A stretch of 64,000 bases of DNA, taken from NCBI RefSeq assembly GCF_046105845.1, contig NZ_CP151004.1; one strand, 5' to 3'. The notes under the pieces were generated by a model. It made no database searches, had not been told where the DNA came from, and saw only the letters and a program-made list of their open reading frames with translations. Shown piece by piece: positions 3,586 through 52,500 of this stretch. Positions within the stretch are counted from its first letter, which is position 1. Each line of letters opens with the position of its first letter. This DNA comes from Escherichia coli (GTDB taxonomy: Bacteria; Pseudomonadota; Gammaproteobacteria; Enterobacterales; Enterobacteriaceae). Position numbers and translations under genes: made by a program.

Positions 3586-4971
3586 TTACTTACGACGCCA
3601 GGTGGTCCCTTGCGGGCCATCTTCCAGCACGATCCCCATCTCGTTAAGACGGTCACGCGCCGCATCTGCCGCCGCCCAGTCTTTCGCTTTACGGGCATCC
3701 AGACGCTGTTGAATTAACGCTTCAATCTCAGCCACTTCACTGTCGTCTGCCTGCGCGCCGCTTTGCAGGAACGCTTCCGGTTCTTGCTCCAGCAGGCCCA
3801 ATACAGCGGAAAGTTTACGCAGATGAGACGCCATTGCATTCGCCGCTGCCATATCTTCTGCTTTCAGACGGTTCACTTCACGGGCCATATCAAACAGCAC
3901 GGAATAGGCTTCCGGGGTGTTGAAATCGTCGTCCATCGCTTCAATAAAGCGCGCTTCAAACGCTTCGCCACCGGCAGGCGCAACGGTTTTATCTGTGCCA
4001 CGCAGCGCAGTGTAGAGACGCTCCAGCGCCGCACGTGCCTGCTTCAGGTTCTCTTCGCTGTAGTTCAGCTGGCTGCGATAGTGGCCTGACATCAGGAAGT
4101 AACGCACGGTTTCCGCGTCGTAGTATTTCAGCACATCGCGCACGGTAAAGAAGTTACCCAGCGATTTGGACATCTTCTCGCGGTCAACCATCACCATCCC
4201 GGAGTGCATCCAGTAGTTTACATACTGACCATCATGGGCACAGGTGGACTGCGCGATTTCATTCTCGTGGTGCGGGAACATCAGGTCAGAACCGCCGCCG
4301 TGGATATCAAAGTGGTTACCCAGCTGCTTGCAGTTCATTGCCGAACATTCAATGTGCCAGCCTGGACGGCCCGCGCCCCACGGAGACGGCCAGCTCGGTT
4401 CGCCCTCTTTCGACATCTTCCACAGAACGAAGTCCATCGGGTTGCGTTTGTCATCAACCACGTCAACGCGCGCGCCAGCCTGCAACTGGTCGAGATCCTG
4501 ACGCGACAGCACGCCATAAGTTGGATCGGTCGGTACGTCAAACATCACGTCGCCGTTGTCCGCCACATAAGCGTGACCTTTGGCGATAAGTTGCTCAGTG
4601 AGTTCAATAATTTCTGCGATATGGTGCGTCGCGCGCGGCTCCATATCCGGGCGCAGAATGTTCAAAGCATCAAAATCTTTGTGCATTTCGGCGATCATGC
4701 GATCCACCAGCGCTACAAAGCTTTCGCCATTTTCATTGGCGCGTTTGATGATTTTGTCATCGATATCGGTAATGTTACGCACATACTTCAGCTTATAGCC
4801 GAGGAAACGCAGGTAACGCGCAACCACGTCAAAGGCAACAAAGGTACGCCCGTGACCGATATGACAGAGATCGTAAACGGTGATTCCACACACGTACATG
4901 CCGACTTCCCCGGCGTGAATAGGCTTAAATTCCTCTTTTTGGCGTGTCAGAGTATTGAAGATTTTTAGCAT
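3586..4971 (-). CDS. cysS: Cysteine--tRNA ligase
   Basis: 461-aa ORF with class I aaRS HIGH motif (CHIGHGRTF) and KMSKS; recognised CysS. Confidence 0.97.
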
Positions 4972-25583: not shown

Positions 25584-26399
25584 CTATGGATGTGCTTTCA
25601 GTCCCAACGCCGTGCTGATATCGCGGGCGGTGTCTCTGACCAGCTCACCCTGACTGACAAAACGATCTTCTGTCAGTCTTGATGAAGGCCCGGAGATGGA
25701 GATAGCGGCAACAACGCTACCTACATCATCGTAAATTGCTGAAGCTATGCAATTCAGACCGACAACATGCTCTTCTTTATCTACGGTATAGCCCAGTTCA
25801 CGCGCTTGTTCCAGGTCCTTCAGCAAGGTGGGCATATCCACAAGCGTCGTTGGCGTAAACTGCTGCAAACCGGTTTGCAGAATGATGCTCATCAACTCCT
25901 CTTCCGCCAGCGGATAAAGCAGCGCCTTGCCCGCACCGGAAGCATGCAGCGGCAGACGACTGCCCAGCGGCGCACACATCCTGACCATCGATTTACACTC
26001 CAACTGACCAATTAATACTGCTTCATTGCCGTTACGAATCGCGACATTGACCGTTTCGCCGGAAAGTAACATCAGGCGGCGCATAAACGGCCCGGCGACG
26101 GAGAGGACATCGCGGTTATGGATGTACGCCGCACCGACGTTAAAAACACCTAATCCTATATGCCACCAGCCTAACTGACTGTCCTGGTAGACAAAATCCG
26201 CTGCCTGTAAAACCTTCAGCAAGCGAAAGGTCGTGGAGAGCGGCAAATCCAGATTGAGAGAAATATCGCTAACCGACGAACTCCCCCCACTTTTTTCCAG
26301 ATATTGCAGAATCGCAATTCCCCGCTCTAACGCCTGTGCGCCCTTCTGTGCCACAGGCTCCGCCTGTCCTGGCCTGCCGCGCCGTCTAACTTCCGTCAT
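25584..26399 (-). CDS. allR: IclR-family repressor of allantoin/glyoxylate genes
   Basis: 271-aa ORF, recognised AllR ([32 protein letters not shown]...). Confidence 0.95.
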
Positions 26400-26454
26400 A
26401 CCTACGTTAACTCCGACCTACAAGTGAGCATAAACAATGAACAATTAGTTTATC

Positions 26455-26859
26455 TTATGCAAGTCGGTTGCAGGCGAAAAGTGGGTGATGCCAGACGTTA
26501 CGATGGTAATTCACTCCCTGTTCGCCGTTGGTAATAAACGCCCGCAGAGTTGACAGGTCTGGTTTGTCGTCACCTAACGCCACGACCACCACAAACACTT
26601 CACCTTTCATCGGGATAAAGGCCTGAGTACCCAGCGGATGACGTTCGAGTTCGTGAATGGTCAGCGGCAGATTCGCCGGTTGCGCGCGGTTAATGCTGAT
26701 AAGCGTACGGTCTTGCTCAAGAATCTCAACCAGCGCCAAATCGTGGTAACGCTCCACCAGGCCATTGTTAATATGGAAAAAATCCCGTTGCTGCGTTTCG
26801 ATTACATCGCCATAAGCACTAAAGGCTTCCTGACTTAACGGTAATACCTGAAGTTTCAT
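26455..26859 (-). CDS. allA: Ureidoglycolate lyase, apparently C-terminally shortened
   Basis: 134-aa [31 protein letters not shown]... ending ...[11 protein letters not shown], stop 55 bp upstream of allR start. Start at 26859 is bounded by an in-frame TGA upstream. Confidence 0.8.
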
Positions 26860-26964
26860 CTTTTTGTCCTTGTAACATAATTCCGTTCAACCACCGCCGA
26901 CCGGTCAGCTTGGTTTCAATAACAGGCAATCTAAAACCTTAAGAGAACAACATCAACACAAAAG

Positions 26965-26981
26965 TTGGAATATTTTTCCAA
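26965..26981. promoter_or_regulatory. Candidate AllR operator in the allS-allA divergent promoter region
   Basis: 17-bp palindrome ttggaatatttttccaa, near-identical to the one upstream of gcl. Confidence 0.6.
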
Positions 26982-27088
26982 AACTAGATTTAGTCCACAA
27001 ATTGAACAGGGTTATCATGTAAAAATACTGATAAATCAGAGGATAAGAAAATCACGCAACTTGCGGATTTAAAAGGGGATACCTGAAG

Positions 27089-28015
27089 ATGTTCGATCCA
27101 GAAACCTTGCGGACTTTCATTGCGGTTGCTGAAACAGGAAGTTTTTCAAAAGCGGCAGAACGATTATGTAAAACCACGGCGACAATCAGTTATCGCATTA
27201 AACTTCTGGAAGAGAATACCGGAGTGGCGCTGTTTTTCCGCACGACTCGCAGCGTGACGTTGACAGCGGCTGGCGAGCATCTACTTTCTCAGGCCAGAGA
27301 CTGGCTGAGCTGGCTGGAAAGTATGCCAAGCGAGCTGCAACAGGTGAATGATGGCGTGGAACGCCAGGTGAATATTGTCATCAACAACCTGCTCTATAAT
27401 CCCCAGGCCGTCGCCCAGTTGCTGGCGTGGCTGAATGAGCGTTACCCCTTTACCCAGTTTCACATCTCCCGACAAATCTATATGGGCGTCTGGGACTCGC
27501 TATTGTACGAAGGTTTTTCGCTGGCTATCGGCGTCACGGGAACTGAGGCGCTGGCAAATACCTTTAGTCTTGATCCCTTAGGATCGGTGCAATGGCGCTT
27601 TGTCATGGCGGCGGATCATCCGCTGGCGAACGTTGAAGAGCCGCTAACAGAAGCTCAGTTGCGTCGCTTTCCGGCGGTCAATATTGAAGACAGCGCCCGC
27701 ACCTTAACCAAACGCGTCGCCTGGCGATTGCCAGGGCAAAAAGAGATTATTGTTCCTGATATGGAAACGAAAATCGCCGCCCATCTGGCGGGCGTTGGCA
27801 TTGGTTTTTTGCCAAAATCACTTTGCCAGTCAATGATCGATAATCAACAACTGGTCAGCCGGGTAATCCCAACGATGCGCCCTCCTTCGCCATTGAGTCT
27901 GGCATGGCGCAAATTTGGCAGCGGCAAAGCGGTAGAAGATATTGTGACCTTGTTTACCCAACGCAGGCCGGAAATCAGCGGATTTTTAGAAATTTTCGGC
28001 AACCCACGCAGTTAA
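27089..28015 (+). CDS. allS: LysR-family activator of allantoin catabolism
   Basis: 308-aa ORF with N-terminal HTH; recognised AllS. Confidence 0.93.
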
Positions 28016-28068: not shown

Positions 28069-29178
<1,110 letters not shown>

Positions 29179-29241
29179 TGGGCGGTATTCTGAAACGGCG
29201 ATTGTCGTGAGAACAGAATGGTTGCACCAGAATACAGATAT

Positions 29242-29271
29242 AAAAAAACCGACATGACAGTCGGTTTTTTT
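29242..29271. terminator. Bidirectional intrinsic terminator
   Basis: Perfect 12-bp stem aaaaaaaccgac / gtcggttttttt with 6-nt loop; a U-run follows in either reading direction. Lies after selU (+) and at the predicted 3' end of the antisense sRNA (-). Confidence 0.6.
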
Positions 29272-29329
29272 ATTTTTTCCGCCCAAAACTTGGTGGTTCC
29301 GGGCAGAAATGAAACAGTCCTCATCTAGC
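29242..29329 (-). ncRNA. Candidate antitoxin sRNA of a type I toxin-antitoxin module
   Basis: Minus-strand promoter -35 TTGAAT (29364..29359), 17-bp spacer, -10 TATAAT (29341..29336); predicted start ~29329; terminator 29242..29271. Its 5' end is the reverse complement of 29315..29330, a 16-nt direct repeat of 29503..29518 in the toxin 5' UTR, so it can pair with the toxin mRNA in trans. Confidence 0.4.
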
Positions 29330-29335
29330 AAGTGA

Positions 29336-29364
29336 ATTATAAGTCAGGATGCCTACATATTCAA
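29336..29364 (-). promoter_or_regulatory. Near-consensus sigma70 promoter for the candidate antisense sRNA
   Basis: TTGAAT-17 bp-TATAAT read on the minus strand. Confidence 0.45.
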
Positions 29365-29589
29365 ACAGCTATGTTGGCGATACAATCCCGACGCTAGTAG
29401 TGATACTGCCTCAAGGGATTACCGCAGTGCGGAAAAGTACTTTTAAGTCCTGGTCAGGATACAGGTGGTGCTGATTCTGGTGCTCTAATTTGGAGAGAGG
29501 CAGTCCTCATCTAGCACATGAAGAAAATCATAGTTACAGGCAACGTAAGGGTAAGCTGTGATTGTCTTTCTCCCTTAAGGGAGCAACGG

Positions 29590-29673
29590 ATGAAAACTTT
29601 TCTCGATAAAGTTCTCATCATTCTTAAGGCGCTAATCGCGCTGCTGGAACTGATCCGTCAGTTTATTGAATAA
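29590..29673 (+). CDS. Candidate type I toxin: 27-aa hydrophobic membrane peptide (DinQ/TisB-like)
   Basis: atg...taa encoding MKTFLDKVLIILKALIALLELIRQFIE; SD-like aggga 7-9 nt upstream; single predicted TM helix; the ALIALLELIR stretch matches my recollection of E. coli DinQ. Too short to appear in the ORF track. Confidence 0.5.
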   Translation: MKTFLDKVLIILKALIALLELIRQFIE

Positions 29674-29690
29674 CTGAGGAAACGTAGCTA

Positions 29691-29745
29691 AGGCCGAAGG
29701 TTTACCACCTTCGGCCTTTAAAAAAACCGACATGACAGTTGGTTT
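29691..29745 (+). terminator. Tandem terminator-like hairpins after the toxin ORF
   Basis: GC hairpin aggccgaagg / ccttcggcct, then a degenerate second copy of the aaaaaaaccgac-atgaca-gttgg element with a T-rich tail. Confidence 0.4.
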
Positions 29746-29776
29746 CATATTTATTGCCAAAATGCACACTGTTCAT

Positions 29777-29875
29777 GCCAGATGCGGCGTAAACGCCTTA
29801 TCCGGCCTACACAATCTTGCAAAATCAATATATTGCACGATCCTCGTAGGCCTGATAAGCGTAGCGCATCAGGCA
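29777..29875. repeat. REP/BIME palindromic elements
   Basis: gccagatgcggcgtaaacgccttatccggcctac ... cgtaggcctgataagcgtagcgcatcaggc, inverted REP pair next to the ybbP stop. Confidence 0.6.
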
Positions 29876-29890
29876 ATCTAACGCCTGTCA

Positions 29891-32305
29891 TCATCCCGCA
29901 AACTGCCTGAACAGCGCCTTACCCTTAACCAGTCGCGCACCCAGCCAGCCGCCGAAAAGCGACAGCAGCAGTGCACCGCTGCACGGCAGCACAATCCACA
30001 ATCGCCAGTCTGGCTCCCACGGAAAATCAAACACTTTCGCCTGCAACACTGCCAGCGCCGTTTCCGCACCAATTGCGGCTACCAGGCCAGAAACAAACCC
30101 AAGCATGGCGAACTCACACCACAATGTCGTGCGCAGCAGCTTTTTCCCCGCACCGAGTGTGCGCCACACCACCAGCTCCTGATGACGCTGACGCATTCCC
30201 ACCTGCACCTGTGCCAGCAACAGCAACATACCGCAGGCGGTGACCAGCACCACCATCACCTCCAGCGCCCGACTTACCTGCTCCAGCACCTGACCGACCT
30301 GTTTTAAAATCGCGCCAATGTCTAACAGGCTAATGGTAGGGAACTGGCGGTTGAGTTGCGTCAACATGCCGTTGCCATTCTCCCAGCGGAAACTGGTAAG
30401 CCAGCTCTGCGGTTGCCCGTCTAATGCCCCTTCAGGGAAAATAAAATAGAAATTAGGCCGCAGACTTTCCCAGTCCACTTTGCGCAGGCTGGTCACTTTA
30501 GCGCGGAACTCCTGGGTATCGCCCATAAAAGTCACGGTATCACCGAGGGCAACGTTTAAGCGTTTCGCCAGCCCCTCTTCCATCGACACTTCATCGGCTT
30601 TTGGCGGCCAGTTACCGGCGACAATCGGATTATGATCGGGCCGCGTATTTTGCCAGGTAAGATTAAGTTCGCGATTGAGCGCCTCATCTTCATTGCCTTC
30701 TGTCGGCTTGCCGTTAATCGCCGTCAGTCTCGCCCGCACCACCGGATAAAATGATTCCGGGACTATCTGATGTTCCGCGAGGAACGCTTTTAGCGGTGCT
30801 ACCTGTTCTGTGGCGATGTTGATTAAAAAGTAGTTCGGGCTTTCTGGCGGTAGCTGCTGCTGCCAGCGGTCAAGCAGATCGCCACGCAGCACCAGCAGCA
30901 GTGCCAACAGCATAAAGGAGAGCGAAAATGCCGAAAGCTGGCTTAACGTTGACCACGGCTGACGTAACAGGCGGCTAACCGCCAGGCGCAGAGGTAGCGA
31001 TTTCAGCGTCATGCGGCGAAGTACATTCAGCAGCATCCAGCCCAGCACACCGCACAGCAAAGCCAGTACTACCGCGCCCGCCAGCACCGCCCAGAGCAGC
31101 ATACTGCCGCCCATTAATCCGGCGAGCAGCAGCACAACCACCACACTGACAATCGGCAGATAAAACTTGAGCGGCCAGACGTTCGCGACCACATCATTAC
31201 GCAATACGCGTAAAGGCTGCGTTGCCAGCAACAAGCGGTACGGTCGTAGCCCCACCAGCAGCGAGATGACCGTCATGGTGCCCAGCGCCCACAACCACGG
31301 CCAGAGGCTGGCTGGCGGTAGTGCAGCAGGCAGAACGGGCTTGAGCAGCACCATCAACACGTTTTCGAACAACAGGCCTATCGCCCCGCCGGTAACGGCT
31401 GAAAGCGTCAGCACCATCAACCACTGACCGACGATTAGCTTACGCAGTTGCGCTCGCCCTGCCCCCAGCGTTTTGAGGATCGCCACAAGATCGTAGCGAC
31501 TGCGACAGTAATGATTCATCGCCACCGCCACCGCTGCCACTGCCAGCAGCAAGGTCAGAAGCGCCGAAAGCAGCAGGAACTGTTGCGAGCGTTCCATCGA
31601 GCGCCCCAGCGCGCCTTCGTCCTGTTCCAGACCGTACCAGCGTTGTTCGGGTTTAAGCTGGGGTAACAACCATTTCTCATAGCCGTCGAGCTGGTTCTCG
31701 TTGCCGCCGAATTTATAGCGCCAGGTGACCCGACTTCCCGGCTGCACGGCTCCGGTTTTATCGACATCCGCCAGATTCATCATCAGACGCGGAGCCATCT
31801 GGAAGGGGTTAAAACCGGAATCCGGTTCCTGAATCACTTCTCCGGCAATCCGCAAGGTGGCATCACCCACGTCGATGGTGTCGCCTGTTTTCAGGTTAAG
31901 CAGTGCCATCAGGCGTGGGGCCAGCAATACGCTGCCCGCCTGCGGTTTCAGGCCAGGGGGATTAGTTTGCAGATCGCCATACATCGGGTAGATATCATCC
32001 ACCGCTTTGACGTTCGCCAGCTGCGGTGTGTCGCCTGCAAATGTCATGGTGGCGAAAGTCAGCTGCTTGCCGACTTTCAGGCCGCGCTTTTGCGCTTCCT
32101 CCAGCCACGCTTGCGGCACTTCGCGCGAACTGCGCAACGCCCGATCGCCCGCCATAAACTCCCGGCTTTGCTGGCTTAAGCCCTTCTCCATGCGATCGCT
32201 GATATTGCCCAGCGCCAGCACGCAGGCCACCGCCAGGCTTAGCGCCAGCCAGACAATTAATAGCGACGGCGAGCGCCATTCGCGCCAGAACCAACGTGCA
32301 ATCAT
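29891..32305 (-). CDS. ybbP: FtsX-like ABC transporter permease
   Basis: 804-aa multi-TM ORF, overlaps ybbA stop by 4 bp. Confidence 0.93.
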   Translation of the reverse strand: MIARWFWREWRSPSLLIVWLALSLAVACVLALGNISDRMEKGLSQQSREFMAGDRALRSSREVPQAWLEEAQKRGLKVGKQLTFATMTFAGDTPQLANVKAVDDIYPMYGDLQTNPPGLKPQAGSVLLAPRLMALLNLKTGDTIDVGDATLRIAGEVIQEPDSGFNPFQMAPRLMMNLADVDKTGAVQPGSRVTWRYKFGGNENQLDGYEKWLLPQLKPEQRWYGLEQDEGALGRSMERSQQFLLLSALLTLLLAVAAVAVAMNHYCRSRYDLVAILKTLGAGRAQLRKLIVGQWLMVLTLSAVTGGAIGLLFENVLMVLLKPVLPAALPPASLWPWLWALGTMTVISLLVGLRPYRLLLATQPLRVLRNDVVANVWPLKFYLPIVSVVVVLLLAGLMGGSMLLWAVLAGAVVLALLCGVLGWMLLNVLRRMTLKSLPLRLAVSRLLRQPWSTLSQLSAFSLSFMLLALLLVLRGDLLDRWQQQLPPESPNYFLINIATEQVAPLKAFLAEHQIVPESFYPVVRARLTAINGKPTEGNEDEALNRELNLTWQNTRPDHNPIVAGNWPPKADEVSMEEGLAKRLNVALGDTVTFMGDTQEFRAKVTSLRKVDWESLRPNFYFIFPEGALDGQPQSWLTSFRWENGNGMLTQLNRQFPTISLLDIGAILKQVGQVLEQVSRALEVMVVLVTACGMLLLLAQVQVGMRQRHQELVVWRTLGAGKKLLRTTLWCEFAMLGFVSGLVAAIGAETALAVLQAKVFDFPWEPDWRLWIVLPCSGALLLSLFGGWLGARLVKGKALFRQFAG

Positions 32306-36947: not shown

Positions 36948-37865
36948 ATGCTTATCTTTATCCCTATTCTCATTTTTGTCGCGCTGGTCATTGTCGGCGC
37001 GGGCGTCAAAATCGTGCCGCAGGGCTATCAATGGACGGTAGAACGTTTTGGTCGCTATACCAAAACGTTACAGCCGGGGCTCAGTCTGGTGGTGCCGTTT
37101 ATGGATCGCATTGGTCGCAAGATCAATATGATGGAGCAAGTGCTCGATATCCCTTCCCAGGAAGTTATCTCGAAAGATAACGCCAACGTTACCATCGACG
37201 CCGTGTGCTTTATTCAGGTGATTGACGCGCCGCGCGCGGCTTATGAAGTCAGCAATCTGGAGCTGGCGATCATCAACCTGACCATGACTAACATCCGTAC
37301 CGTGCTGGGTTCAATGGAACTTGACGAAATGCTCTCTCAGCGCGACAGCATCAACTCACGCCTGCTGCGTATTGTCGATGAGGCCACCAACCCGTGGGGG
37401 ATTAAAGTCACCCGTATTGAAATTCGCGACGTGCGCCCACCAGCAGAGCTTATCTCTTCAATGAACGCGCAGATGAAAGCGGAACGTACCAAACGCGCTT
37501 ACATCCTTGAAGCGGAAGGGATCCGTCAGGCGGAAATCCTCAAAGCCGAAGGTGAAAAACAGTCGCAAATCCTGAAAGCGGAAGGCGAACGTCAGTCGGC
37601 GTTTTTACAGGCTGAAGCGCGTGAACGTTCCGCTGAAGCAGAAGCCCGCGCCACCAAAATGGTGTCTGAAGCCATTGCCTCCGGCGATATTCAGGCGGTG
37701 AACTACTTCGTAGCACAGAAATACACCGAAGCGTTACAGCAGATCGGTTCCTCCAGTAACAGCAAAGTAGTGATGATGCCATTAGAGGCCAGCAGCCTGA
37801 TGGGGTCGATTGCCGGGATTGCCGAGCTGGTGAAAGACAGCGCCAACAAACGGACTCAGCCATGA
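36948..37865 (+). CDS. qmcA: SPFH/stomatin-family protein QmcA
   Basis: 305-aa ORF with N-terminal TM segment and band-7 domain. Confidence 0.93.
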
Positions 37866-38320
37866 TGGAGTTAATGGTCGTTCATCCACATATTTTCTGG
37901 CTCAGTCTCGGCGGGTTGCTGCTGGCAGCCGAGATGCTGGGCGGAAATGGTTATTTGTTGTGGAGCGGCGTGGCAGCGGTGATTACCGGTCTGGTGGTCT
38001 GGCTGGTGCCGCTGGGTTGGGAGTGGCAAGGGGTGATGTTTGCCGTCCTGACGCTGCTCGCCGCCTGGCTGTGGTGGAAATGGTTGTCGCGGCGGGTGCG
38101 CGAACAAAAGCACAGCGACAGTCATTTAAACCAGCGCGGGCAGCAGCTTATTGGCCGACGTTTTGTGCTGGAATCTCCGCTGGTCAACGGGCGAGGTCAT
38201 ATGCGCGTCGGTGACAGTTCATGGCCTGTCAGCGCCAGCGAGGATCTCAGTGCAGGTACGCATGTTGAGGTGATTGCGATAGAAGGGATAACGCTGATTA
38301 TCCGTGCGGTCATCGCCTGA
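37862..38320 (+). CDS. ybbJ: NfeD-like inner membrane protein
   Basis: 152-aa ORF overlapping qmcA stop by 4 bp (classic SPFH-NfeD pair). Confidence 0.9.
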
Positions 38321-38867: not shown

Positions 38868-39233
38868 TTAAATTTTCCTGCCTGGCGTAAACCTCTTAAA
38901 AATTGAGATTTATCAAAGAAACGCATTTTAGCACACATCAGGAACCGCTTCACGTTTAGTTCAGAAACAGAATTTATTTCGCTTATCAAAACAAGTCTTT
39001 ACTCTTTTTTACATTGAAAGAGCACAAAATGATTTTCTATTTTATTTATATAAGAAACATTTTTTGTTTCTTATTGGTGGTGTTTACGCTTACACCAGAC
39101 AAAAATGCGCTTTACATCACACAAATGGCGGCGTAGATTTCGATCAAATTGCAACGCAGATTAATTCTTATAACAACGTTTTACGTTGCTTATAGAAACA
39201 AATATGTGACTTACTTTGAAAGAGAAAAAATGC

Positions 39234-42125
39234 ATGAAAACTGTAAAGCTGTCTTTACTGGCTGTCGTTGTTGCTACCGCGGTAAGTCCATCTGCGTTTG
39301 CGGGTGATACTGTTGAGGCGGCAACGACAGAATTAACGGCAATCCAGCCAGGAATGTCGCAATCGGAAATTGATCAGAAAATTGGTCGATTTTTAGAAAG
39401 GACAGGGAATAGTGCAGCCGCACAAAATTATCTGATTGCGCATGATTACCGGACAACGACACCTCAGGAAAATACAGCTGCCTCTCCCGTACAGCCCGCC
39501 AATACGCTGAACCCGATAACCAATCAAGCGCAGACCGACCGCGACAACGGGCAGGATACCGCCATTCAGGACGCACAACATGCCGCCAACTGGGCTTCAC
39601 TGAAAGCTGATGACGCGCAGCACGCCATCACGGTGGCGCAGACGGATATTGATGCCAATAAAGCCGCCATCGCCGACACCCGTAATGATGTCTCCGCAGT
39701 GCAGTCAGACGTCACCAACATAAAAGGCGATGTCGCACATGCCCAGTCAACGGCTGACCATGCCAACGCTAACGCCAACACCGCTCTGATGAACGGCGTC
39801 AAACTTTCCGGTGCTGTGGCAGAAAACAAAAACAATATCGAACAGAACCGCAGCGATATTGCTGACCAGCAGAAACTGTTGGCATCAAACGAGCAAAAAC
39901 AGATCGTCCGCGACAACGGGCAGGATACCGCCATTCAGGACGCGCAACATGCCGCCAACTGGGCTTCACTGAAAGCTGATGACGCGCAGCACGCCATCAC
40001 GGTGGCGCAGACGGATATTGATGCCAATAAAGCCGCCATCGCCGACACCCGTAATGATGTCTCCGCAGTGCAGTCAGACGTCACCAACATAAAAGGCGAT
40101 GTCGCACATGCCCAGTCAACGGCTGACCATGCCAACGCTAACGCCAACACCGCTCTGATGAACGGCGTCAAACTTTCCGGTGCTGTGGCAGAAAACAAAA
40201 ACAATATCGAACAGAACCGCAGCGATATTGCTGACCAGCAGAAACTGTTGGCATCAAACGAGCAAAAACAGATCGTCCGCGACAACGGGCAGGATACCGC
40301 CATTCAGGACGCGCAACATGCCGCCAACTGGGCTTCAATGAAAGCTGATGACGCGCAGCACGCCATTATGGTGGCGCAGACGGATATTGATGCCAATAAA
40401 GCCGCCATCGCCGACACCCGTAATGATGTCTCCGCAGTGCAGTCAGACGTCACCAACATAAAAGGCGATGTCGCACATGCCCAGTCAACGGCTGACCATG
40501 CCAACGCTAACGCCAACACCGCTCTGATGAACGGCGTCAAACTTTCCGGTGCTGTGACAGAAAACAAAAACAACATCGAACAGAACCGCAGCGATATTGC
40601 CGACCAGCAGAAACTGTTGGCATCAAACGAGCAAAAACAGATCGTCCGCGACAACGGGCAGGATACCGCCATTCAGGACGCACAACATGCCGCCAACTGG
40701 GCTTCAATGAAAGCTGATGACGCGCAGCACGCCATTATGGTGGCGCAGACGGATATTGATGCCAATAAAGCCGCCATCGCCGACACCCGTAATGATGTCT
40801 CCGCAGTGCAGTCAGACGTCACCAACATAAAAGGCGATGTCGCACATGCCCAGTCAACGGCTGACCATGCCAACGCTAACGCCAACACCGCTCTGATGAA
40901 CGGCGTCAAACTTTCCGGTGCTGTGACAGAAAACAAAAACAACATCGAACAGAACCGCAGCGATATTGCCGACCAGCAGAAACTGTTGGCATCAAACGAG
41001 CAAAAACAGATCGTCCGCGACAACGGGCAGGATACCGCCATTCAGGACGCACAACATGCCGCCAACTGGGCTTCAATGAAAGCTGATGACGCGCAGCACG
41101 CCATTATGGTGGCGCAGACGGATATTGATGCCAATAAAGCCGCCATCGCCGACACCCGTAATGATGTCTCCGCAGTGCAGTCAGACGTCACCAACATAAA
41201 AGGCGATGTCGCACATGCCCAGTCAACGGCTGACCATGCCAACGCTAACGCCAACACCGCTCTGATGAACGGCGTCAAACTTTCCGGTGCTGTGACAGAA
41301 AACAAAAATAATATCGAACAGAACCGCAGCGATATTGCTGACCAACAGCAACAACTCGACGAAACCCGGAAAACCGTTGCCGCCACCGGTGATGTACAGA
41401 CTGCCGCCCGATATCAGAGCATGATTGACGCCAGACAGACTGCTGCTGCCAATGCGCAACAGGAACAAGCGGACACCCAGCAGCAACAAATGGACGATCA
41501 GCAGAAACAAATCGACGCGACGCAAAAAACGGTTTCCGCACTTGGCGATGCCCAGACCAACGCACATTATCAAGAGATGGTTAACGCCGGACTGAGAGCA
41601 CAAAATGATGCGAATGCGCGTACTGCAGCAGAACAAAAACAAAAAATAGATACTCTGGCGACTAACCAGGCAACGCAACAGCATATCGATAGTGTGCAGT
41701 ACGGGGAACAAATTCAGCGTCTGGCGCAAGACTCAACACAAACGCATGAACAAATTGACAGCCTGACACAAGACGTAACCCAAACGCATCAGCAGTTAAG
41801 CAACACGCAAAAACGAGTAGCGGATAATAGCCAGCAGATTACTACGCTCAATAACCATTTCAGTTCGCTGAAAAACGAAGTTGAGGACAACCGTAAAGAA
41901 GCCAATGCGGGAACTGCATCAGCCATCGCTATCGCCTCACAACCACAGGTGAAAGCCGGTGACTTTATGATGATGTCAGCGGGAGCGGGAACCTTCAACG
42001 GTGAATCTGCGGTGTCTGTCGGAACATCTTTTAATGCCGGAACGCATACCGTGATTAAAGCCGGTGTCTCTGCGGATACGCAATCTGATTTCGGCGCGGG
42101 TGTCGGCGTGGGATATTCTTTCTAA
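39234..42125 (+). CDS. Trimeric autotransporter adhesin-like protein (type Vc) with coiled-coil repeat stalk and YadA-type anchor
   Basis: ORF 39216..42125; ATG at 39234 gives 963 aa. Sec signal peptide MKTVKLSLLAVVVATAVSPSAFA; long Q/A/N/D-rich helical repeat region; C-terminus EANAGTASAIAIASQPQVKAGDFMMMSAGAGTFNGESAVSVGTSFNAGTHTVIKAGVSADTQSDFGAGVGVGYSF fits the YadA-like anchor pattern (alternating small residues, glycine-rich beta strands, terminal aromatic). No recognisable YadA head motifs. Confidence 0.75.
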   Translation: MKTVKLSLLAVVVATAVSPSAFAGDTVEAATTELTAIQPGMSQSEIDQKIGRFLERTGNSAAAQNYLIAHDYRTTTPQENTAASPVQPANTLNPITNQAQTDRDNGQDTAIQDAQHAANWASLKADDAQHAITVAQTDIDANKAAIADTRNDVSAVQSDVTNIKGDVAHAQSTADHANANANTALMNGVKLSGAVAENKNNIEQNRSDIADQQKLLASNEQKQIVRDNGQDTAIQDAQHAANWASLKADDAQHAITVAQTDIDANKAAIADTRNDVSAVQSDVTNIKGDVAHAQSTADHANANANTALMNGVKLSGAVAENKNNIEQNRSDIADQQKLLASNEQKQIVRDNGQDTAIQDAQHAANWASMKADDAQHAIMVAQTDIDANKAAIADTRNDVSAVQSDVTNIKGDVAHAQSTADHANANANTALMNGVKLSGAVTENKNNIEQNRSDIADQQKLLASNEQKQIVRDNGQDTAIQDAQHAANWASMKADDAQHAIMVAQTDIDANKAAIADTRNDVSAVQSDVTNIKGDVAHAQSTADHANANANTALMNGVKLSGAVTENKNNIEQNRSDIADQQKLLASNEQKQIVRDNGQDTAIQDAQHAANWASMKADDAQHAIMVAQTDIDANKAAIADTRNDVSAVQSDVTNIKGDVAHAQSTADHANANANTALMNGVKLSGAVTENKNNIEQNRSDIADQQQQLDETRKTVAATGDVQTAARYQSMIDARQTAAANAQQEQADTQQQQMDDQQKQIDATQKTVSALGDAQTNAHYQEMVNAGLRAQNDANARTAAEQKQKIDTLATNQATQQHIDSVQYGEQIQRLAQDSTQTHEQIDSLTQDVTQTHQQLSNTQKRVADNSQQITTLNNHFSSLKNEVEDNRKEANAGTASAIAIASQPQVKAGDFMMMSAGAGTFNGESAVSVGTSFNAGTHTVIKAGVSADTQSDFGAGVGVGYSF
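39540..41343 (+). repeat. 4.9 tandem copies of a 369-bp (123-aa) near-identical in-frame repeat within the autotransporter gene
   Basis: cgcgacaacgggcaggatacc recurs at 39540, 39909, 40278, 40647 and 41016 (exact 369-bp period). Unit begins RDNGQDTAIQDAQHAANWAS... Copies 1-2 and copies 3-5 form two subtypes (LKADD/ITVAQ/AVAEN versus MKADD/IMVAQ/AVTEN). Confidence 0.92.
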
Positions 42126-42836: not shown

Positions 42837-43244
42837 TCACCCCGCCCGATGATGACAGCAGCCGGAGAGATTTTCGATAATCGGGCAGTCGGCGCTGTCA
42901 TCGCCAGGGCAGGCATTCGCCAGCGCCAACAGCTGGTTGCGCATGGATTGCAGTTCTTCGATATGTCGCTCGATCTCCGCCACTTTCTCCAGGGTGCGAC
43001 GTTTGACGTCGGCACTGTGACGCTGCGGATCGTTAAACAGATTCACCAGCTCGCCGCTCTCTTCCAGGTTAAAGCCCACCTGGCGTGCCTGGCGCAGTAA
43101 GGTCAGTTCGTTGAGATGCTGCTGCGTGTAAGTACGATAACCGTTTTCGCTGCGCATCGGCGGCGTCACCAGCCCCTTCTCTTCATAGAAGCGGATTGCT
43201 TTGCTGGTCAGGCCGGTAATTTTTGCTACATCGCTAATGTTCAT
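42837..43244 (-). CDS. cueR: MerR-family copper-responsive regulator
   Basis: 135-aa [32 protein letters not shown]... with C-terminal metal-binding CPGDDSADC...CCHH; recognised CueR. Confidence 0.95.
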
Positions 43245-44416
43245 CGTTCGCGCAACGCCTCCTGTGCTTTATTAAAGGGTTTCAACAGATAATCCAGCAC
43301 GCTTTTTTTGCCGGTGCGGATATCGACCGTCGCCACCATGCCGGGAAATATCGGAAACTGCTGTTTACTTTTGTTTTCCAGATGGTTGCTGAAAGTGCGA
43401 ATGTACACCCGATAGTAATAAACATCGCGCCGCACTTCATCCTGCACGGTGTCTGGTGATATCACCGCCACTTCTCCCGGCAGGCCGCCGTAGATGGAGT
43501 AATCGTAGGCGGTTATTTTCACCAGCGATTTTTGCCCCGGATGGATAAACGCCACATCGCGCGGGGAGATTTTTGCCTCGATCAGCAGTTGCTCATCCAG
43601 CGGCACGATGGTCATCAGTTTACCACCGGGGGCAATGACCCCGCCAACCGTGGTGACGTCAATGTCCTGAACAATGCCTCGCACCGGCGCGGTAAAGTTG
43701 AGCCTGGTGAGGGAGTCTTCCCGTCCACGGATCACCGAACGCTGGGTTTCCACTTCCGCATTGGCTTTCGCTAACTCTTCGCGCGCCTGAACGTAATATT
43801 GCGTGCGCACGTCGCTAAGTTTGTTTTCCAGTTCATTGGCCTGGCGTTGCAGGCGCAGCACTTCAACGCTGCTCGCCGCCCCCTGTTTTACCAGCGGCTG
43901 GGTCATCGCCAGTTCGCGGTTGACCAGGCTAATCCCCTGCGTCAGCCCGGTGGTGGCTTTGTTCAGCCCATCGCGGCGAGTGTTGTACAACGCCGTTTCC
44001 GACTCGATAAGTTCGGGGAATTTATTCAGTTCGTCAGGGAAGACCAGCGGTTTATTGCTCACTTCCGCCCGCAGCCGCGCCGAGGTTGCCAGCGCCGCGT
44101 ACAGCCGCGACATTGCTTCCTGGACGTCGGATTCCGTTTTGGTGCGGTTAAGCTGCGCCAGCGGCTGGCCCTGTTCAACAATATCGCCAACCTTGACGTC
44201 GAGATGATACAGAATTCCGCCTTCCAGCGACTGCACCACCTGTTCGCGCCCGGAGGGTTCTACCGTGCCGCTGCCGGTGGTGACTTCATCAAGCTGGAAG
44301 TACCACGCCCAGCCGAGAAAACAGAGCAGCATCACAGCGGTAACGCGTACCGCCAGCGCCGAACGCGGCAAGCGGGGTTCAGTCAGGCCACGGTTGTATT
44401 GCAGTTGTCCGTTCAT
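43241..44416 (-). CDS. Type I secretion periplasmic adaptor (HlyD family membrane fusion protein)
   Basis: 391-aa ORF with N-terminal TM anchor, long coiled-coil region and C-terminal beta domain typical of HlyD/LapC; its stop overlaps the cueR start (ATGA). Confidence 0.88.
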
Positions 44417-46575
44417 GCGGCAGACCCCTTATTCTTCTCCTGCAACACCACCCGTCGCGCCGTGGGTTCGCTCTGTTCACGCAAAATGGCCTCTTTCGCG
44501 CCATCCATCACAATCCGCCCCTGATCCATCACGATGATCCTGTCCACCAGTTGCAGCATCGCCGTGCGGTGAGTAGCGATGACCAGCGTGCGATGCCCAA
44601 TCCACTGTTTCAGTTGTTCGATTAAATACGCTTCCGCCATTTCGTCCAGCGAGGCGCTGGGTTCATCGAGCAGCACGATATTGGGTTGAGAGATGAGTAG
44701 CCGCGCCAGCAGCAGCGTTTGCCGCTGACCACCAGAGAGGCCAAATCCCCCTTCCTGAATCATGTAGTTGAGGCCGTTTTTCTGCTTCTGCACAAAGGGC
44801 AGCGCGCCACTTAGCGTTAACGCGCGTTCGATATCTTCATCGCTGGCCTCCGGCATCCCCATGGTGAGGTTTTCCCGCAGCGAACCAAAAAACAGTCGCC
44901 CGGTCTGGCTCAGCAGCCCCATGTCGCGGCGCAGATCTGCCGGATCAAGTTGCCCGATGCTGATGTTATCCAGTAGCACCTGCCCCTGCTGGGCGATACG
45001 CATTCCGGCGAGCATTTGCAGTAGCGTTGATTTACCCGCGCCGTTGCGCCCGAGAATGGCGATTTTCTCTCCGGCCTGAATGTTGAGTTTGCCAATCGCC
45101 ACATCGGCAATCTTCTCTTCTTCGTCGTAATAAAATACCGCGTTGCTGAACTGATAATTGCCGTGCAGCACCGCTTTATGCACCAGTTTGCCGTGTTCCG
45201 GCTGATCCACCGGGCGCTTCATCAGTTCATCAAGGCCATTACGCGCTACTTTCGCCTGCTGCCAGCGCGAGAGCACGCCGGATATCTGCGACAGCGGCGC
45301 GATGGTGCGCGAAGCCAGGATCGTCGTCCCGACCAGCGCGCCGGTGGTCATGTCACCGTTCATTACCATAAAGCAGCCCACCAACAGCACCACCACGTAG
45401 ACGATGGACTGCACTTCCTGGGTCCAGGTGAGCAGTAGCCCGGTGAGAAAACGTTGCTTCATACTGATGGACGAGGCCACGTCGTTGGTGTGGTTCCACT
45501 GATTCTGAAAACGCTGTTCGGCGCGCAGCAGCTTAATATCTTCAATCGACTGCACGGCTTCCACCAGCGTAGCGTTACGCACCGCCGACTCGCGCATCCC
45601 TTCGTTCGCCAGCCGCGCCAGCGGGCGTTGTACCAGCAGGCCGGGGATCACCAATAACGGCAGCGCCAGCAAAACCACCAGCACCAGCCAGCCGCCAATC
45701 ATCCACAAAATAAAGACAAACAGCAGGAAGAACGGCAGATCCGCCACTGCACCAATAGTGGTGGAGGTGATCAGCTCCCGAACCGATTCCAGTTCGCGGA
45801 TCTGCGAGATAAACGATCCGGTGGATTTCGATCGCACGTTGTTTTTAAGCCGTAGCGCATGACCAAAAACGCGATCCGAAATACGCAGATCCGCCCGCTT
45901 GCCGATCACATCCGAAAGATGTGTGCGCACCATGCGCATACAGAACTCAAACAGGATCGCCATCATCACCCCGGCGAACAGCACCCATAGCGTCGGGTAC
46001 GATTGCGCCGGAACGACGCGGTCGTAAACCTGCATCGAGAAAATCATCGCCGCAAGCGCCAGCACGTTCGCCACCAGTGACGCCAGCATAATATCGCCAT
46101 AGCGCCGCCAGTCTTTTAGCGAGAGATTCCAGAACCAGTTCGCCTGATACGGGCGAATATAGTCGTCTACCCGCGCGTCAGGAATAGCGCTGAGCGGGCG
46201 CAACAGCGCCAGTTCGACGATGTTATCTTCAATATCCGTAACGTTAAGCGTGGTTTCCAGCCCTTCGTCACCGCTGAACTGAACGCTGATATTGTCGTGA
46301 TTATCGCGGCGGGTGATCACGCCAATCTGCTGATTATCAAATACCGCGATCAGCGGCAGACGCCACGGGTTAAGCGAGTCGGCGGAGAACTCCACCAACC
46401 GTAACCCCATTCCCAACTGCCGCGCCATATCGGTGAGCAACTCTTCCCGCTTGCTGTCGCGCTCCCAGTTGACGGTTGCGCGCACGTTCTCCTGAGAAAA
46501 ATCGAGGCGGTAATAACGCGCCACGGCGATCATCGCCTCCAGCCAGGCTTCCACGGACTGGGCATTTTTTTTCAT
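44413..46575 (-). CDS. Type I secretion ABC transporter (ATPase/permease) with N-terminal C39-like extension
   Basis: 720-aa ORF: ~150-aa N-terminal extension, 6-TM region, then Walker A GRNGAGKST, signature LSGGQRQ, Walker B LLDEPSASLD; its stop overlaps the adaptor start (ATGA). Confidence 0.9.
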   Translation of the reverse strand: MKKNAQSVEAWLEAMIAVARYYRLDFSQENVRATVNWERDSKREELLTDMARQLGMGLRLVEFSADSLNPWRLPLIAVFDNQQIGVITRRDNHDNISVQFSGDEGLETTLNVTDIEDNIVELALLRPLSAIPDARVDDYIRPYQANWFWNLSLKDWRRYGDIMLASLVANVLALAAMIFSMQVYDRVVPAQSYPTLWVLFAGVMMAILFEFCMRMVRTHLSDVIGKRADLRISDRVFGHALRLKNNVRSKSTGSFISQIRELESVRELITSTTIGAVADLPFFLLFVFILWMIGGWLVLVVLLALPLLVIPGLLVQRPLARLANEGMRESAVRNATLVEAVQSIEDIKLLRAEQRFQNQWNHTNDVASSISMKQRFLTGLLLTWTQEVQSIVYVVVLLVGCFMVMNGDMTTGALVGTTILASRTIAPLSQISGVLSRWQQAKVARNGLDELMKRPVDQPEHGKLVHKAVLHGNYQFSNAVFYYDEEEKIADVAIGKLNIQAGEKIAILGRNGAGKSTLLQMLAGMRIAQQGQVLLDNISIGQLDPADLRRDMGLLSQTGRLFFGSLRENLTMGMPEASDEDIERALTLSGALPFVQKQKNGLNYMIQEGGFGLSGGQRQTLLLARLLISQPNIVLLDEPSASLDEMAEAYLIEQLKQWIGHRTLVIATHRTAMLQLVDRIIVMDQGRIVMDGAKEAILREQSEPTARRVVLQEKNKGSAA

Positions 46576-46578
46576 TAT

Positions 46579-49500
46579 CTACACCACCATCAACTGATGA
46601 TTCGCCAGCAAAGTGGCGAGGTCGGTGTGCACGCCCGTCAGCGTGACCACGTTAGTTGTCGCAAAAGTGCCGCCCGTGCCGTCGCGGTCGATCTGTACGA
46701 TGGTGTCGCTGCCGCTCTGGGTGACTTTGACAAAATCACCGATGTTTCCGGCCTGCGCATCCAGCGTTGCCACGCCGTTGACGTAGCTGGCTTTACCGTT
46801 GCCGGTGTAGCCGCTGCCCTGTAACAACTCGCGGATATCAATGCGATCGGTGTCGGCGGTGCCTTCCCATGTCCCTACCGTAAAGCCATTCACCACGTCT
46901 GAGCCGTTGCCGCCGGTCGCGTCGCTGGCGTTGAGCAGTTTATAGAGCAAGGTGTCGTGGCCGCCGTTGCCGATGTTGAGCGTGTCGTTACCGCCGCGCC
47001 CTTCCAGTTGGTTATCGCCGCTGCTGCCGGTCAGAGTGTCGTTAAAATTCGAGCCGGATATCCCTTCGATATTGGTAAATGTCGAGGTGTTAAAGCCGGT
47101 GGCCTGCGCGGCGGTGCTGCTTAAGTTCGCGGTCACGCCCACCGTCGAGAGGCGGAAATCAACCACGTCCATCCCGCCATTCGCCAGCCACGTTCCGGTG
47201 CCGGAGCTGTACACCCAACCGCCGGAGCCGTCGTAAGTGTCGGTGCCTGCGGTGGCAAAGAAGGTGTCGTTATAGCCGGTGCCGACGAACTTGCCATTGT
47301 TGCTCGCGGTGCCTGCTTCGGCGCTGAGGTCGTAAGCGTGGGTGGCATCGGTGGCCTGTAAGCCGCCCCAGCTGGTGTTGACCGTCTGGTCGATATTGCT
47401 GGCGGTGGTGCCGGTGGATTTGATCAGCACCGCGTTGTAGGTTTCTCCGGCATTCAGCCCGTAGAAGTTGACCAGCGCCGAGGTGTCGTTAACCCCCATA
47501 CCCGACTGCGGGTTGATGATTTGCGTGGCGACCAGCACTCCCGCCGAGTTGTACAGTTTTACGGTATTGCCGTAATAGACGTTAATGCCGTTAGGATCGG
47601 TGATGCGCAGGTGCAGCGAAGTGCCGTAGCTCACCGTGTTGGTGTTGCGAATAAGATAGACGCTGCCCGACTGTTTGGTCACCAGCACATCCACCGCGCC
47701 GTCCCAGTCGTAGTCCATTGCCGCCACGCCGCTGGTGGTACCGCTCTGGCTACCGCCGAGGGCCGATTGTGTCCAGTTGCTGGCATTGCTGACGTTGGTA
47801 TAAAGATACGACTGCCCGGTCTGGGCGATACGGGCGATATCCATCAGGCCGTCATGGTTCCAGTCCACCGCCAGGCTAAACTGGCTGGCGTAGGTGGTTG
47901 CCGTTGCGCCCACCGCCACCGGGCTACCCAGTACACCGTTGGTGTTGAATAACAGCGAGCCGTAGTTAGCTCTTCCCTGGCTGGCGGGCAGGAAGAGATC
48001 CATATCGCCGTCGCCATCGAAATCGGCCCAGGTCATGGAAACGCTGCTGCTCATAGCGCCACTACCCGCCCCGCTCAGGAAGGTATTGGTGGTGTTCTGC
48101 CCCCAGACAAACGTCCCATTCCCCTGGTTGATGAGCGAAGACAGTGTGTAATAGTTATTCAGGTTATAGGTGTGCTGAACCAGGTCGATCCTGCCGTCAT
48201 TATTCAGATCGACGCCAGAACCTTCGTTGAGCGAAAGATACCCCGTCACCGCCCCGCCCACCGTGGCGCTACCGCCGCTGTTCGACGTGGTGGAGGTGCC
48301 TACCAGCGTGCCTGCGTTGTTCCACAAGAAGGTGTTAGAGTCCGGCCCGCCCGCGTCGCCAATCCAGAAGTCGAGATAGCCGTCGCCCTCTTTATCAAAT
48401 GCCACAATCGAGCCGTACCACGTCAGGGTGCCGACGGTGACCTGAATAGCGCTGGAAAAGGTGCCGTCGCCGTTATTGGTAAAGCCGTTGATATAGCCTG
48501 TACCGTAGTCATCACGGGTGATAAACAGATCGCCCGTGCCGTTACGGTCGTAATCGGCGATGGAGCTGGTGGCGTAGTTGTTGCCGCTCTGATACAGCGT
48601 CAGCGCGGTCTTCGACCAGGTGAGTGGGTCAGTCGATTGCATTACCTGCTGGTTTGCCAGCACCGTCCACATCCCGTGCGAGTCGAGGCCGTAGGTCAAT
48701 CCCCAGGCGGTGGTTTTGCTGACGGTGGTCCAGGTCGGTGTGTAATCAATCGCCGCATTAACCGTCACCGTGCCGTTGCTAATATTGGCGTTATTGCCGT
48801 TACCCGCCGAACTTTTTACCTGCGCAGTAACGGTATAGGCGGTCGCGGAAACTGTCAGCGCATCGGTATCCGGCAACTGTACATACCAGGTGTTGTGCGC
48901 CGGATCGACCACTACCGCGCCGCCCGGTTCAGAGGTGTAGGTTTTGCCGTTGATCACCACTTCAACATACTGCCCACTGGCGAGTGCCGCCGTGATTACC
49001 CCGCTGATAATCGGCGTGGTATCGCGCGTGGTCTGGCTGGTAATTTGCGCCAGCGTGGTCGGAATAGAGGTATCGACCGTCAGGACAAAATCACTGGAGG
49101 CGGTGATATTCCCCGCCAGATCCACCACTCGCGCACTGTAGGTGTAGGCACCGCTCACCAGCCCGCTGTCGCTGTAGGTCCAGTTCAGTGCGCCTACCAT
49201 CGTTACCGCGCCTAACAGCAGGCCGTTACGGTAGAGGTAAACCACTTCACCGCTGGCAAGCGGGCCGGAGAGCACGCCGTTCAGCAACGGCGTAGTGTCG
49301 TCGGTGGCCTGCGAACTGCTTAATGTCCCCTGCCGCTGCCCGACGTCATCAGTGTACGACACAATGGTCGGCGTCGCGGTGGGGTTAATCGTATCGACCA
49401 CCACCGTTTTCGACACCACCGGACCGGTGTTCCCCGCCAGATCCAGCACCCGCACCTGATAAACATAGCTGCCGTCGGTCAGCGTGCGGCTGTCAGTGTA

Positions 49501-52500
49501 GGTCCACTGCGTGCCGTTGGTGGTGAGCGTGATCCAGGTCGCGCCACCATCGAGGCTAATCTGCGCCACTTCGCCACTGGCAAGCCCCGCCCCCAGTGAA
49601 CCCGTCAGCGTGAGCGTGGTATCGCTGGTGATAAAGTCAGTTGCCGAACTCCCCGTGTCGGTGCTGATACTGGCGATGGTGAGTACCTGCGCCGGGTTAA
49701 CGGTATCGATCAGCGCCGACTGGCTGCCGGTTGCGCCAACGTTGCCCGCAAGATCGACTACCCGCACCTGCCAGGTGGTGGTGCCGTTGGTGAGCGTGCG
49801 CCCGTCAACGTAACTCCAGTTAAGGCCGTCTGCGGCGACGGTCACGTTCACCCAGGTTGCGCCGTTGTCGGTACTGATTTGCGCGAACTCATTAGCGCCG
49901 AGCGCCGCGCCCAGCACGCCGCGCACGGTAAGCGAGGTGTCGCTGGTAATAAAATCGCTACTGCTGGCTCCGGTGTCATCGCTGATACCGGTAATGGTGA
50001 TACTTTTCGCCGCTTCCGGGCTGGTGGTGTCGACCACCACATTTTGCGTTGCGGTCTGCCCGACATTCCCCGCCAGATCCACCACCCGCACCGTGTAGTT
50101 CCAGGTGCCGTCGGTCAGTGTGCGACCATCGGCATAGCTCCAGCTGGTGCCGATAACGGTTAAGGTGGTCCAGGTAACACCGCCGTCGAGGCTGATTTGC
50201 GCCCGTTCATCGGCGGCAAGCGCCGCGCCGAGCGTGCCGCGCACGGTCAGCGTGGTGTCGCGGGTGACAAAATCGCTGCTGCTTAACCCGGTGTCATCGC
50301 TGATGCCCGCAATGGCGATGGTTTTGCTCGCCAGCGGCGCGGTGGTGTCCACAGTGACTATCTGGCTGGCGGTCGCGCCGATATTTCCGGCGGTGTCGAT
50401 CACCCGCACCTGATAGTTGTAGTTGCCGTCGCTCAGCGTGCGCCCGTCAAGATATGTCCAGGTTAAGCCGCTTACCGAAAGATTCTGCCAGGTGGTGCCG
50501 CCGTCGATGCTGATTTGCGCGAACTCACCGGCAGAAAGCGCCGCGCCCAGCGTGCCGCTTACCGCAAGCGTCGTGTCGCTGGTGACAAAATCGTTAGTGA
50601 TCAGGCCCGTATCGGTAGTGATCGCGCTGATGGCGATGGTTTTCACCGCGGGATCTGGCGCGATGGTGTCGATCACCACATTCTGGCTGTCGGTGGCACC
50701 GACGTTGCCCGCAGCGTCAATCACCCGCACCTGATAGAGATAGTTGCCATCGGTCAGCGTGCGGCTGTCGTTATAACGCCAGGTCGTGCCGGTAACGGTG
50801 AGCGTGGTCCAGGTTACGCCGCCGTCGATACTGATTTGTGCCGTCTCGTTACTGGCAAGCGCGGCGGTGAGCGAGCCGTTGACCACCACCGGACTGACGC
50901 TGGTGATAAAGTCGCTGGCGCTAAGCCCAGTGTCGGCTTGCAGGGAATCGATATTAATACCCATCGCCGGGACGCTGAGATCGACAGTAATGGTGTGATT
51001 GCTGCTGCCGGTGTTGCCAATGGCGTTGCTCACCGAGGCATTAATCACATAGGCATTGCCGTCCGTCAGCGCGGTGACATCGGCGCTGCCGAGGGTGTAG
51101 CTCCAGCTACCGCCGGTCTGTACCGTGGTGGTGTAGGTTTTGCCGTTTAAGGTCAGGGTCAGCGTCTGCCCGACGGGTGCGGTGGTGGTGCCGCTGATCA
51201 CCAGCGACGAGCCGTGTTCCGCCGCGTTCACCACATCATCGCCCGCAAAGGTGTTGATGGTGACGGTAGGCACATCGCCGTTCAACGTCACGCCACGGCT
51301 GGCGCTGCCGGGGTTTCCGGCCTGATCGGCGACCGACGCGCTGATGGTGTAGCTGCCGTCGCTTAATCCGGCAAACTGCTGCGCCGGAATAAACACCGAC
51401 CAGCTTCCGCCGCTGCCGACCGTTGCAGTCCAGCTCTGACCGTTAAAGGTGACGGTCACCGTCTGGCCCACTTCAGCGGTGGTGGTGCCGCTGATGGTTT
51501 GCCCAGCGAGCTGTTCGGCGTTGTTGATAATATCGTCACCCGCCACCGTGGCGATGGTGACCGTGGGCGCAACGGTATCGACGGTCAGGGCGTGCGTGGT
51601 TTGACCGGGGTTACCGGCGCGATCGTTCACGCTGGCGGTAATGGTCTGCGCGCCCTGCCCGAGTGCGGCCAGATCCGCCGCAGGCACGTTAAGCGCCCAG
51701 GTGCCATTGGCGGCCACCGTGGCAGTGTAAGTTTTGCCGCCAAAGGTGACAGTGACCGTCTGCCCCACTTCCGCGCTGGTCGAGCCGTTAAGGGTTAACG
51801 GCTGCTGTTGTTCGGCGGCGTTGAGTCGGTCGTCCGTTGAAACCGTGTTTATGCTGATAATCGGCGCGGTGAGATCCACCGCAACACTGCGCGAGGCCGT
51901 GGCGCTGTTTCCGGCGCTGTCCTGGGCGGAGGCGCTAACCGTGTAGCTGGTGCCATCCGCCAGTGCCGCGACGTCTGCCGCCGGCACGTTCACGCTCCAG
52001 CTCCCGTTGCTCTGAATGGTGGCGCTGTAGCCTTTGCCGTTAAGCAACACGGTCACTACTGTACCTGCGGCAAAGTTCGTTCCGGTGCCGATCAGGGTCA
52101 GCGCACTGCCCGCTTCGGCGGCGTTAATAATATTATCGCCGCTGATGGTGCTGACCGAGAGCGACACTGCCGCCGTGTTCACCTGCACGTTGTGCGTCTG
52201 CGTGCTGCTGTTGCCTGCGCTATCGGTGATAGTGGCGCTGATGGTCACCGTGCCGTCTGCAAGGCCGGAAATCACGCTGGCAGGCACGCCGACGCTCCAG
52301 TTGCCGCTGGCATCGGTGCTGGTGACATACTGCTGCCCGGCGATGGTCACCACCAGGCGGTCGCCCGCCACTGCGCCCGTGGCGGTGCCGCTGATAATCT
52401 GCGCCTGAGTGTGTTCGACGTTGTTAATCACATCATCGCCCGCCACGGTGTTAAAACTGATCACCGGCGCAGTGGTATCGACGGTCACGCCTTTGCTGGC

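Follow-up and report, generated by a model that had tools for sequence, protein, structure and literature searches.

Does the allA gene in the 64,000-nucleotide stretch of Escherichia coli DNA analyzed here (the window) truly lack its 3' end, and can its product still act as an enzyme? AllA is a Ni-dependent lyase that converts ureidoglycolate to glyoxylate and urea (PMC3793230). The original prediction gave the reading frame as 134 codons, put the intact enzyme at about 160 residues, and ascribed the difference to a 3' deletion or a frameshift removing the C-terminus or, alternatively, to an error in that expected length. We conclude, with a probability of about 0.82, that the window carries a genuine 100-bp deletion in allA bounded by CGCCTG repeats, that its product is that of a pseudogene, and that the deletion is recurrent in E. 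coli.

The truncated reading frame and its deletion

The locus comprises the following features, given in window coordinates.

26455..26859, minus strand: truncated allA reading frame, 134 codons plus a TAA stop, residues 1-129 native
26471..26476, minus strand: deletion junction with the sole remaining CGCCTG copy (CAGGCG on the plus strand), from the alignment to the intact allele
26455..26472, minus strand: new tail, codons 130-134 (C N R L A) plus TAA, formerly the start of the allA-allR intergenic DNA
26400..26476, minus strand: former allA-allR spacer, all 77 bp of it unchanged, of which the first 22 bp are now read as part of the allA frame
25584..26399, minus strand: allR, IclR-type repressor, intact, 271 aa, from its reading frame and the comparison with strain ETEC1738
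26860..27088, no strand: divergent allS-allA control region, the 300 bp 5' of the allA ATG being those of the intact ETEC1738 allele
27089..28015, plus strand: allS, LysR-type activator, intact, 308 aa, from the length of its reading frame

The minus-strand frame 26455..26859 confirms the 134 residues, and its translation places the stop codon of the tail, TAA, at 26455..26457. The breakpoint can be placed anywhere inside the six bases 26471..26476 or at either of their edges. The segment 26400..26859 consists of the truncated frame and the 55 bp that now separate its stop from the start of allR. The position of allA in the allantoin (ALL) cluster is normal, with both neighbors, allS and allR, present; allR is identical to the ETEC1738 allele over the compared portion (through ~60% of the gene), and its product binds the allS-allA control region (PMC12535856).

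The expected length of about 160 residues proved correct, as intact AllA is encoded by a 483-bp coding sequence in ETEC1738 and the PDB chains align over residues 1-160. A homologue search of 1.84 billion representative proteins returned 1,796 relatives; those that are diverse and full-length (37-55% identity) mostly have 160-185 aa and align through query residue ~145-158, which refutes the alternative that the expected length was wrong. In a profile search, the 134-aa product matches Pfam PF04115 (Ureidogly_lyase) with 160.5 bits against a cutoff of 23, the match spanning only profile positions 3-133 of 162. Furthermore, the product is 100% identical to the crystallized E. coli/Shigella enzyme (PDB 1XSR/1YQC) at residues 1-129 and divergent thereafter.

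Pairwise alignment, proposed against K-12, was run here against the intact ETEC1738 allele and revealed one clean gap of exactly 100 bp and no other difference between 300 bp upstream and 900 bp downstream of the allA ATG. The difference is read directly from the sequence and is not statistical, so that chance plays no part. Two copies of CGCCTG lie in the intact allele, at positions 3525-3530 and 3625-3630 of the ETEC1738 locus (L001), their spacing of 100 equalling the length of the deletion; since the bases flanking the two copies differ, the microhomology measures 6 bp and no more. The second copy starts directly after the TGA stop of allA, and the 77-bp spacer and allR are therefore untouched. 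What is removed are codons 130-160 and the stop codon. Deletion and frameshift, which had been offered as alternatives, both apply: the missing 100 bp correspond to 33 codons plus one base, hence the frame shifts, five codons of the former spacer (CNRLA) are read and TAA follows. The junction contains no foreign or IS DNA, and the sequences align cleanly up to both edges of the gap. Judged from this junction, slipped-strand mispairing or another microhomology-mediated deletion between the CGCCTG copies probably removed the segment and left one copy, upon which translation would run five codons into formerly intergenic DNA, yielding AllA(1-129)+CNRLA.

Searching the 751 bp around allA against 5,426 complete E. 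coli genomes gave matches in 5,404 of them, the best being 100% identical in two pieces across 851 bp. The 94-bp inner segment that the window lacks is present in 5,365 of the 5,426. Predictions for the 3' end of allA and the spacer gave neither a sigma-70-like promoter nor a convincing terminator in either allele, and as the allA-allR spacer is fully kept, the allR promoter is probably unaffected.

The remainder of the window offers further observations. Between mnmH (28084..29178) and ybbP (29891..32305) lies a spacer of only ~0.7 kb (29179..29890), where K-12 carries the rhsD element; at the corresponding place, the ETEC1738 annotation shows a small dinQ-like type I toxin gene. A plus-strand reading frame at 39216..42125, with ybbJ (37862..38320) on one side and the minus-strand MerR/CueR-like gene 42837..43244 on the other, has a C-terminal YadA_anchor domain and encodes a trimeric autotransporter adhesin, which contains a tandem repeat at 39531..41352 (4.9 copies of 369 bp, or 123 aa, at 98% identity). 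Similar DNA is found in 1,414 of the 5,426 complete genomes, annotated as 'YadA-like family protein', with spans shorter by multiples of ~369 bp, suggesting variation in repeat copy number. A type I secretion island follows on the minus strand (43241..63996). It comprises an HlyD-family adaptor (43241..44416), an LssB-type ABC permease/ATPase (44413..46575) and a giant adhesin frame of more than 5,805 aa (46579..63996) with Ca-tandemer/Ig-like repeats and a T1SS C-terminal target domain, which runs off the window end.

Occurrence and origins of the deletion

A gap of this kind could be an assembly or sequencing artifact hiding an intact allA in the strain, and the 100% identity of the window's flanks to intact alleles would agree with this. 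We consider it very improbable, however. A 6-bp repeat is far too short for an assembler to collapse 100 bp, and the junction shows the classic signature of a real deletion. Moreover, a 44-bp junction probe, which shares at most 25 contiguous bases with the intact allele and can thus draw no megablast seed from it, was found in two of the 5,426 complete genomes (~0.04%), namely ET650 (NZ_CP100936.1; frog feces, China) and OkiPb01685 (NZ_AP042523.1; bovine feces, Japan). In both, junction and 100-bp deletion are identical to those in the window, and PGAP labels allA a pseudogene, 'incomplete... missing C-terminus'. The exact 134-aa product also occurs on 152 public contigs (NCBI, ENA and Logan assemblies), and another 134-aa form, which carries S14C and Q24K (P0013), on 16 further ones. 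The complete genomes and the 152 contigs stem from unrelated projects and backgrounds, and the same product in so many independent assemblies makes an artifact very unlikely.

Is this one deletion that has spread, or several? Eleven deletion alleles, among them eight fetched carrier loci, were compared over 5.2 kb, one with a frameshifted gcl being set aside. They mutually differ at 1-157 positions per 5.2 kb, and the haplotypes on which the deletion sits are 30-157 SNPs apart over that length. The window is identical to none of the eight fetched loci, and its nearest relative over this distance is an intact allele, with 31 differences. Over 12 kb, its best match among the complete genomes reaches only 99.3%, so that its own genome is not one of these. 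ET650 and OkiPb01685 differ from the window at 128-149 positions per 5.2 kb and hence represent separate events; ET650 also has a broken allS (internal stop, L002 1481..2407), whereas allS is intact in the window. The variable sites nearest to the repeat are site 375, 9 bp upstream of it, and site 412, 23 bp downstream. Five deletion haplotypes (the window, L010, OkiPb01685, L004 and ET650) each have an intact counterpart among the complete genomes that is 100% identical over the 751 flanking bases; for a sixth, L011, the counterpart is 99.9% identical. It follows that the deletion is recurrent, and neither an artifact nor a single spreading allele.

A single origin followed by homologous recombination between lineages could also place one junction on several backgrounds. 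E. coli recombines, and for some pairs of haplotypes no distinguishing SNP is closer to the junction than 57-140 bp. This explanation is nevertheless unlikely, given that each of the five deletion haplotypes fully matches an intact haplotype of its own across the 751 bp, and that L010, which differs from the others at 9 bp on the upstream and 23 bp on the downstream side of the repeat, would require an imported tract of less than ~40 bp plus the junction. Microhomology offers a simple path to recurrence instead. The simplest reading of these haplotypes is thus that at least five independent deletions occurred at one repeat pair, the same deletion having apparently arisen several times in E. 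coli while staying at low frequency. As a consequence of its recurrence on at least five backgrounds, the deletion could serve as a homoplasic, lineage-independent marker, one that is unsuited to phylogeny.

The CGCCTG pair as a candidate preferred site

Intact allA and its spacer hold 21 direct-repeat pairs of at least 6 nt within 200 bp, five of them of 7 nt. The predicted products of 18 alternative microhomology deletions were searched by exact protein sequence. Fifteen of the 18 were absent from public contigs in this exact look-up and two were found on 1-2 contigs; the last, a 37-aa stub on 35 contigs, is ambiguous, as a nonsense mutation or a contig break yields the same product.

We rejected the contig count as a measure of hot-spot strength, as two other disrupted forms of allA are found on as many as 128 and 83 contigs. 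The first of these is a 142-aa allele (ending in TIDRG), which includes the complete genome 2017.02.03CC; the second is a 122-aa form of Shigella flexneri with a stop at W123. Stops at Q114 and Q131 give further truncated products of 113 and 130 aa, and Salmonella Typhi has one of 97 aa on 85 contigs; these recurrent truncated products in public data are indexed as P0003, P0004, P0005, P0015 and P0185. Because contig counts presumably reflect clonal sampling in part, we counted haplotypes, of which there are at least five for the CGCCTG deletion, whereas no alternative accounts for more than about one event. This comparison mildly suggests that the CGCCTG pair is a preferred deletion site, and the recurrent allA deletion would then be a small natural example of site-preferred microhomology deletion.

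Hairpin-assisted slippage was considered as well and is not claimed, owing to a low and folding-window-dependent occupancy of the stem. The stem in question, formed by the 7-nt inverted repeat GCGTCAC/GTGACGC and reaching 11 bp if one bulge is allowed (3531-3534/3536-3542 paired with 3621-3631), closes very nearly on the boundaries of the deleted 100 nt. Its ensemble probability is 0.19-0.27 in one folding window, at +2.2 kcal/mol over the MFE, and at most 0.09 in a slightly different one. Several other repeat pairs in allA are better bracketed than CGCCTG, yet were unseen as deletions, and the region folds no better than shuffled sequence (z = -1.05).

AllA function, the allantoin pathway and known systems

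In an alignment of 59 diverse homologues, the lost part contains the nearly invariant residues F136, D140 and R141 within the consensus DFLVVDRxGxxxNCxE, and a motif DFLxxDRxGSxNCD in the lost segment is common to P. putida 2BDR. An AlphaFold2 model of intact AllA, built from the homologue alignment (mean pLDDT 94.5), has strands at 134-141 (8 residues, pLDDT ~97) and 148-151 in this part. Since core strands and conserved residues are removed, AllA(1-129)+CNRLA, devoid of two C-terminal barrel strands and the three nearly invariant residues, is most likely misfolded or inactive. From conservation and model together, we hold inactivity to be highly probable, and allA in the window is most likely a pseudogene.

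All nine invariant residues of the family (F13, G17, E72, H74, Q79, V93, F108, W123 and H124) are retained in the truncated product, for which reason inactivity is something that we infer, and residual function is possible. The product could still be a working ureidoglycolate lyase or have another role, the gene then being a short allele and not a pseudogene; in keeping with this, the Pfam score is still 160 bits and the allele persists on many contigs. Even so, we regard such a working allele as distinctly improbable. Not only are the three residues lost together with two or three β-strands, including the one of 8 residues, but the domain extends through the lost segment in all 59 diverse homologues. 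In addition, the frequency in complete genomes is ~0.04%, and the short, highly identical relatives on record are either fragments or alleles disrupted in other ways.

With allA most likely a pseudogene, the enzymatic conversion of ureidoglycolate to glyoxylate and urea, which belongs to the glycerate branch, would be lost. AllA feeds only this branch, the urea of which goes to waste, E. coli being urease-negative; nitrogen release is due to AllB/AllC/AllE and to the AllD-AllFGH-AllK oxamate branch, the latter yielding 3 NH3 and 1 ATP (PMC12535856). Reading frames of reference length are present in the window for allK/ybcF, allH, allG, allF, allD, allC, allE, glxK and ybbY, and likewise for allB, allW, glxR, hyi, gcl, allR and allS. 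As these other frames of the cluster are full-length, release of allantoin nitrogen via AllB/AllC/AllE and the AllD-oxamate route should remain. The predicted phenotype is thus mild, with the dedicated route to glyoxylate lost and the use of allantoin nitrogen kept. Furthermore, each of allS, allA and allR is monocistronic, AllR has glyoxylate as its inducer (PMC12535856), and induction of the AllR regulon may possibly be slower. Growth on allantoin as sole nitrogen source, also proposed earlier, is an unclean assay of the allele, because AllA serves the glycerate branch only and because ureidoglycolate also decays spontaneously to glyoxylate and urea (PMC3793230).

Lesions in and around allA are found elsewhere too. 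IS1 is inserted inside allA in two complete genomes, PSS-04 and PSJ-32-1 (H83/H84). ETEC1738, the strain with the closest intact allA, has an internal stop in glxR (L012 17302..18180), and in two other deletion carriers the gcl call is split or shortened (L008 4366..6146; L011 4366..5934). The allantoin cluster, being conditionally useful, seems to decay sporadically across E. coli.

Recurrence could alternatively reflect positive selection for AllA loss in some niches, where ureidoglycolate would be diverted to the oxamate branch and no urea wasted. The origins of the deletion, at least five and independent, would fit, as would the existence of other allA-disrupting alleles (the 142-aa form, the 122-aa Shigella flexneri form and the IS1 insertions). 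We find selection improbable all the same, as only two of the 5,426 complete genomes carry the deletion, and as broken allS, gcl or glxR in some carriers or close relatives resembles relaxed selection on the whole cluster. The broader proposition, that the CGCCTG pair is a true deletion hot spot or a selected loss-of-function route by which the glycerate branch is repeatedly disabled, we consider unlikely; if it held, the ureidoglycolate branch point would shift toward the oxamate branch, which yields ATP and ammonia.

Taken as a recurrent deletion with a pseudogene product, allA in the window is an ordinary truncating deletion, that is, gene decay, and the allele is already public and already called a pseudogene by PGAP. 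What appears mildly new is the homoplasy of the deletion, which has at least five origins and a seemingly preferred site. Our literature search found no description of an allA allele with the 100-bp deletion; the primary genetics paper on the allantoin cluster is said to be that of Cusa et al. 1999. For annotation, allA should be flagged as a pseudogene here, and metabolic models of this strain should treat the glycerate branch of allantoin degradation as being without its dedicated enzyme.

Compared with E. coli AllA (EC 4.3.2.3; PF04115; PDB 1XSQ/1XSR/1YQC), the window has the same locus order, in which allS is divergent from allA-allR-gcl, whereas its product lacks residues 130-160 and carries CNRLA instead. 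As to the deletion itself, the classic hot spots of lacI, reportedly described by Albertini et al. 1982 and by Glickman and Ripley 1984, are said to arise by slipped mispairing between short direct repeats. The allA deletion resembles these in having two short direct repeats of which one is kept, a length equal to the repeat spacing, and recurrence at the same site. It differs in that the repeat is only 6 bp long and in that a role of bracketing palindromes is not robustly supported for allA.
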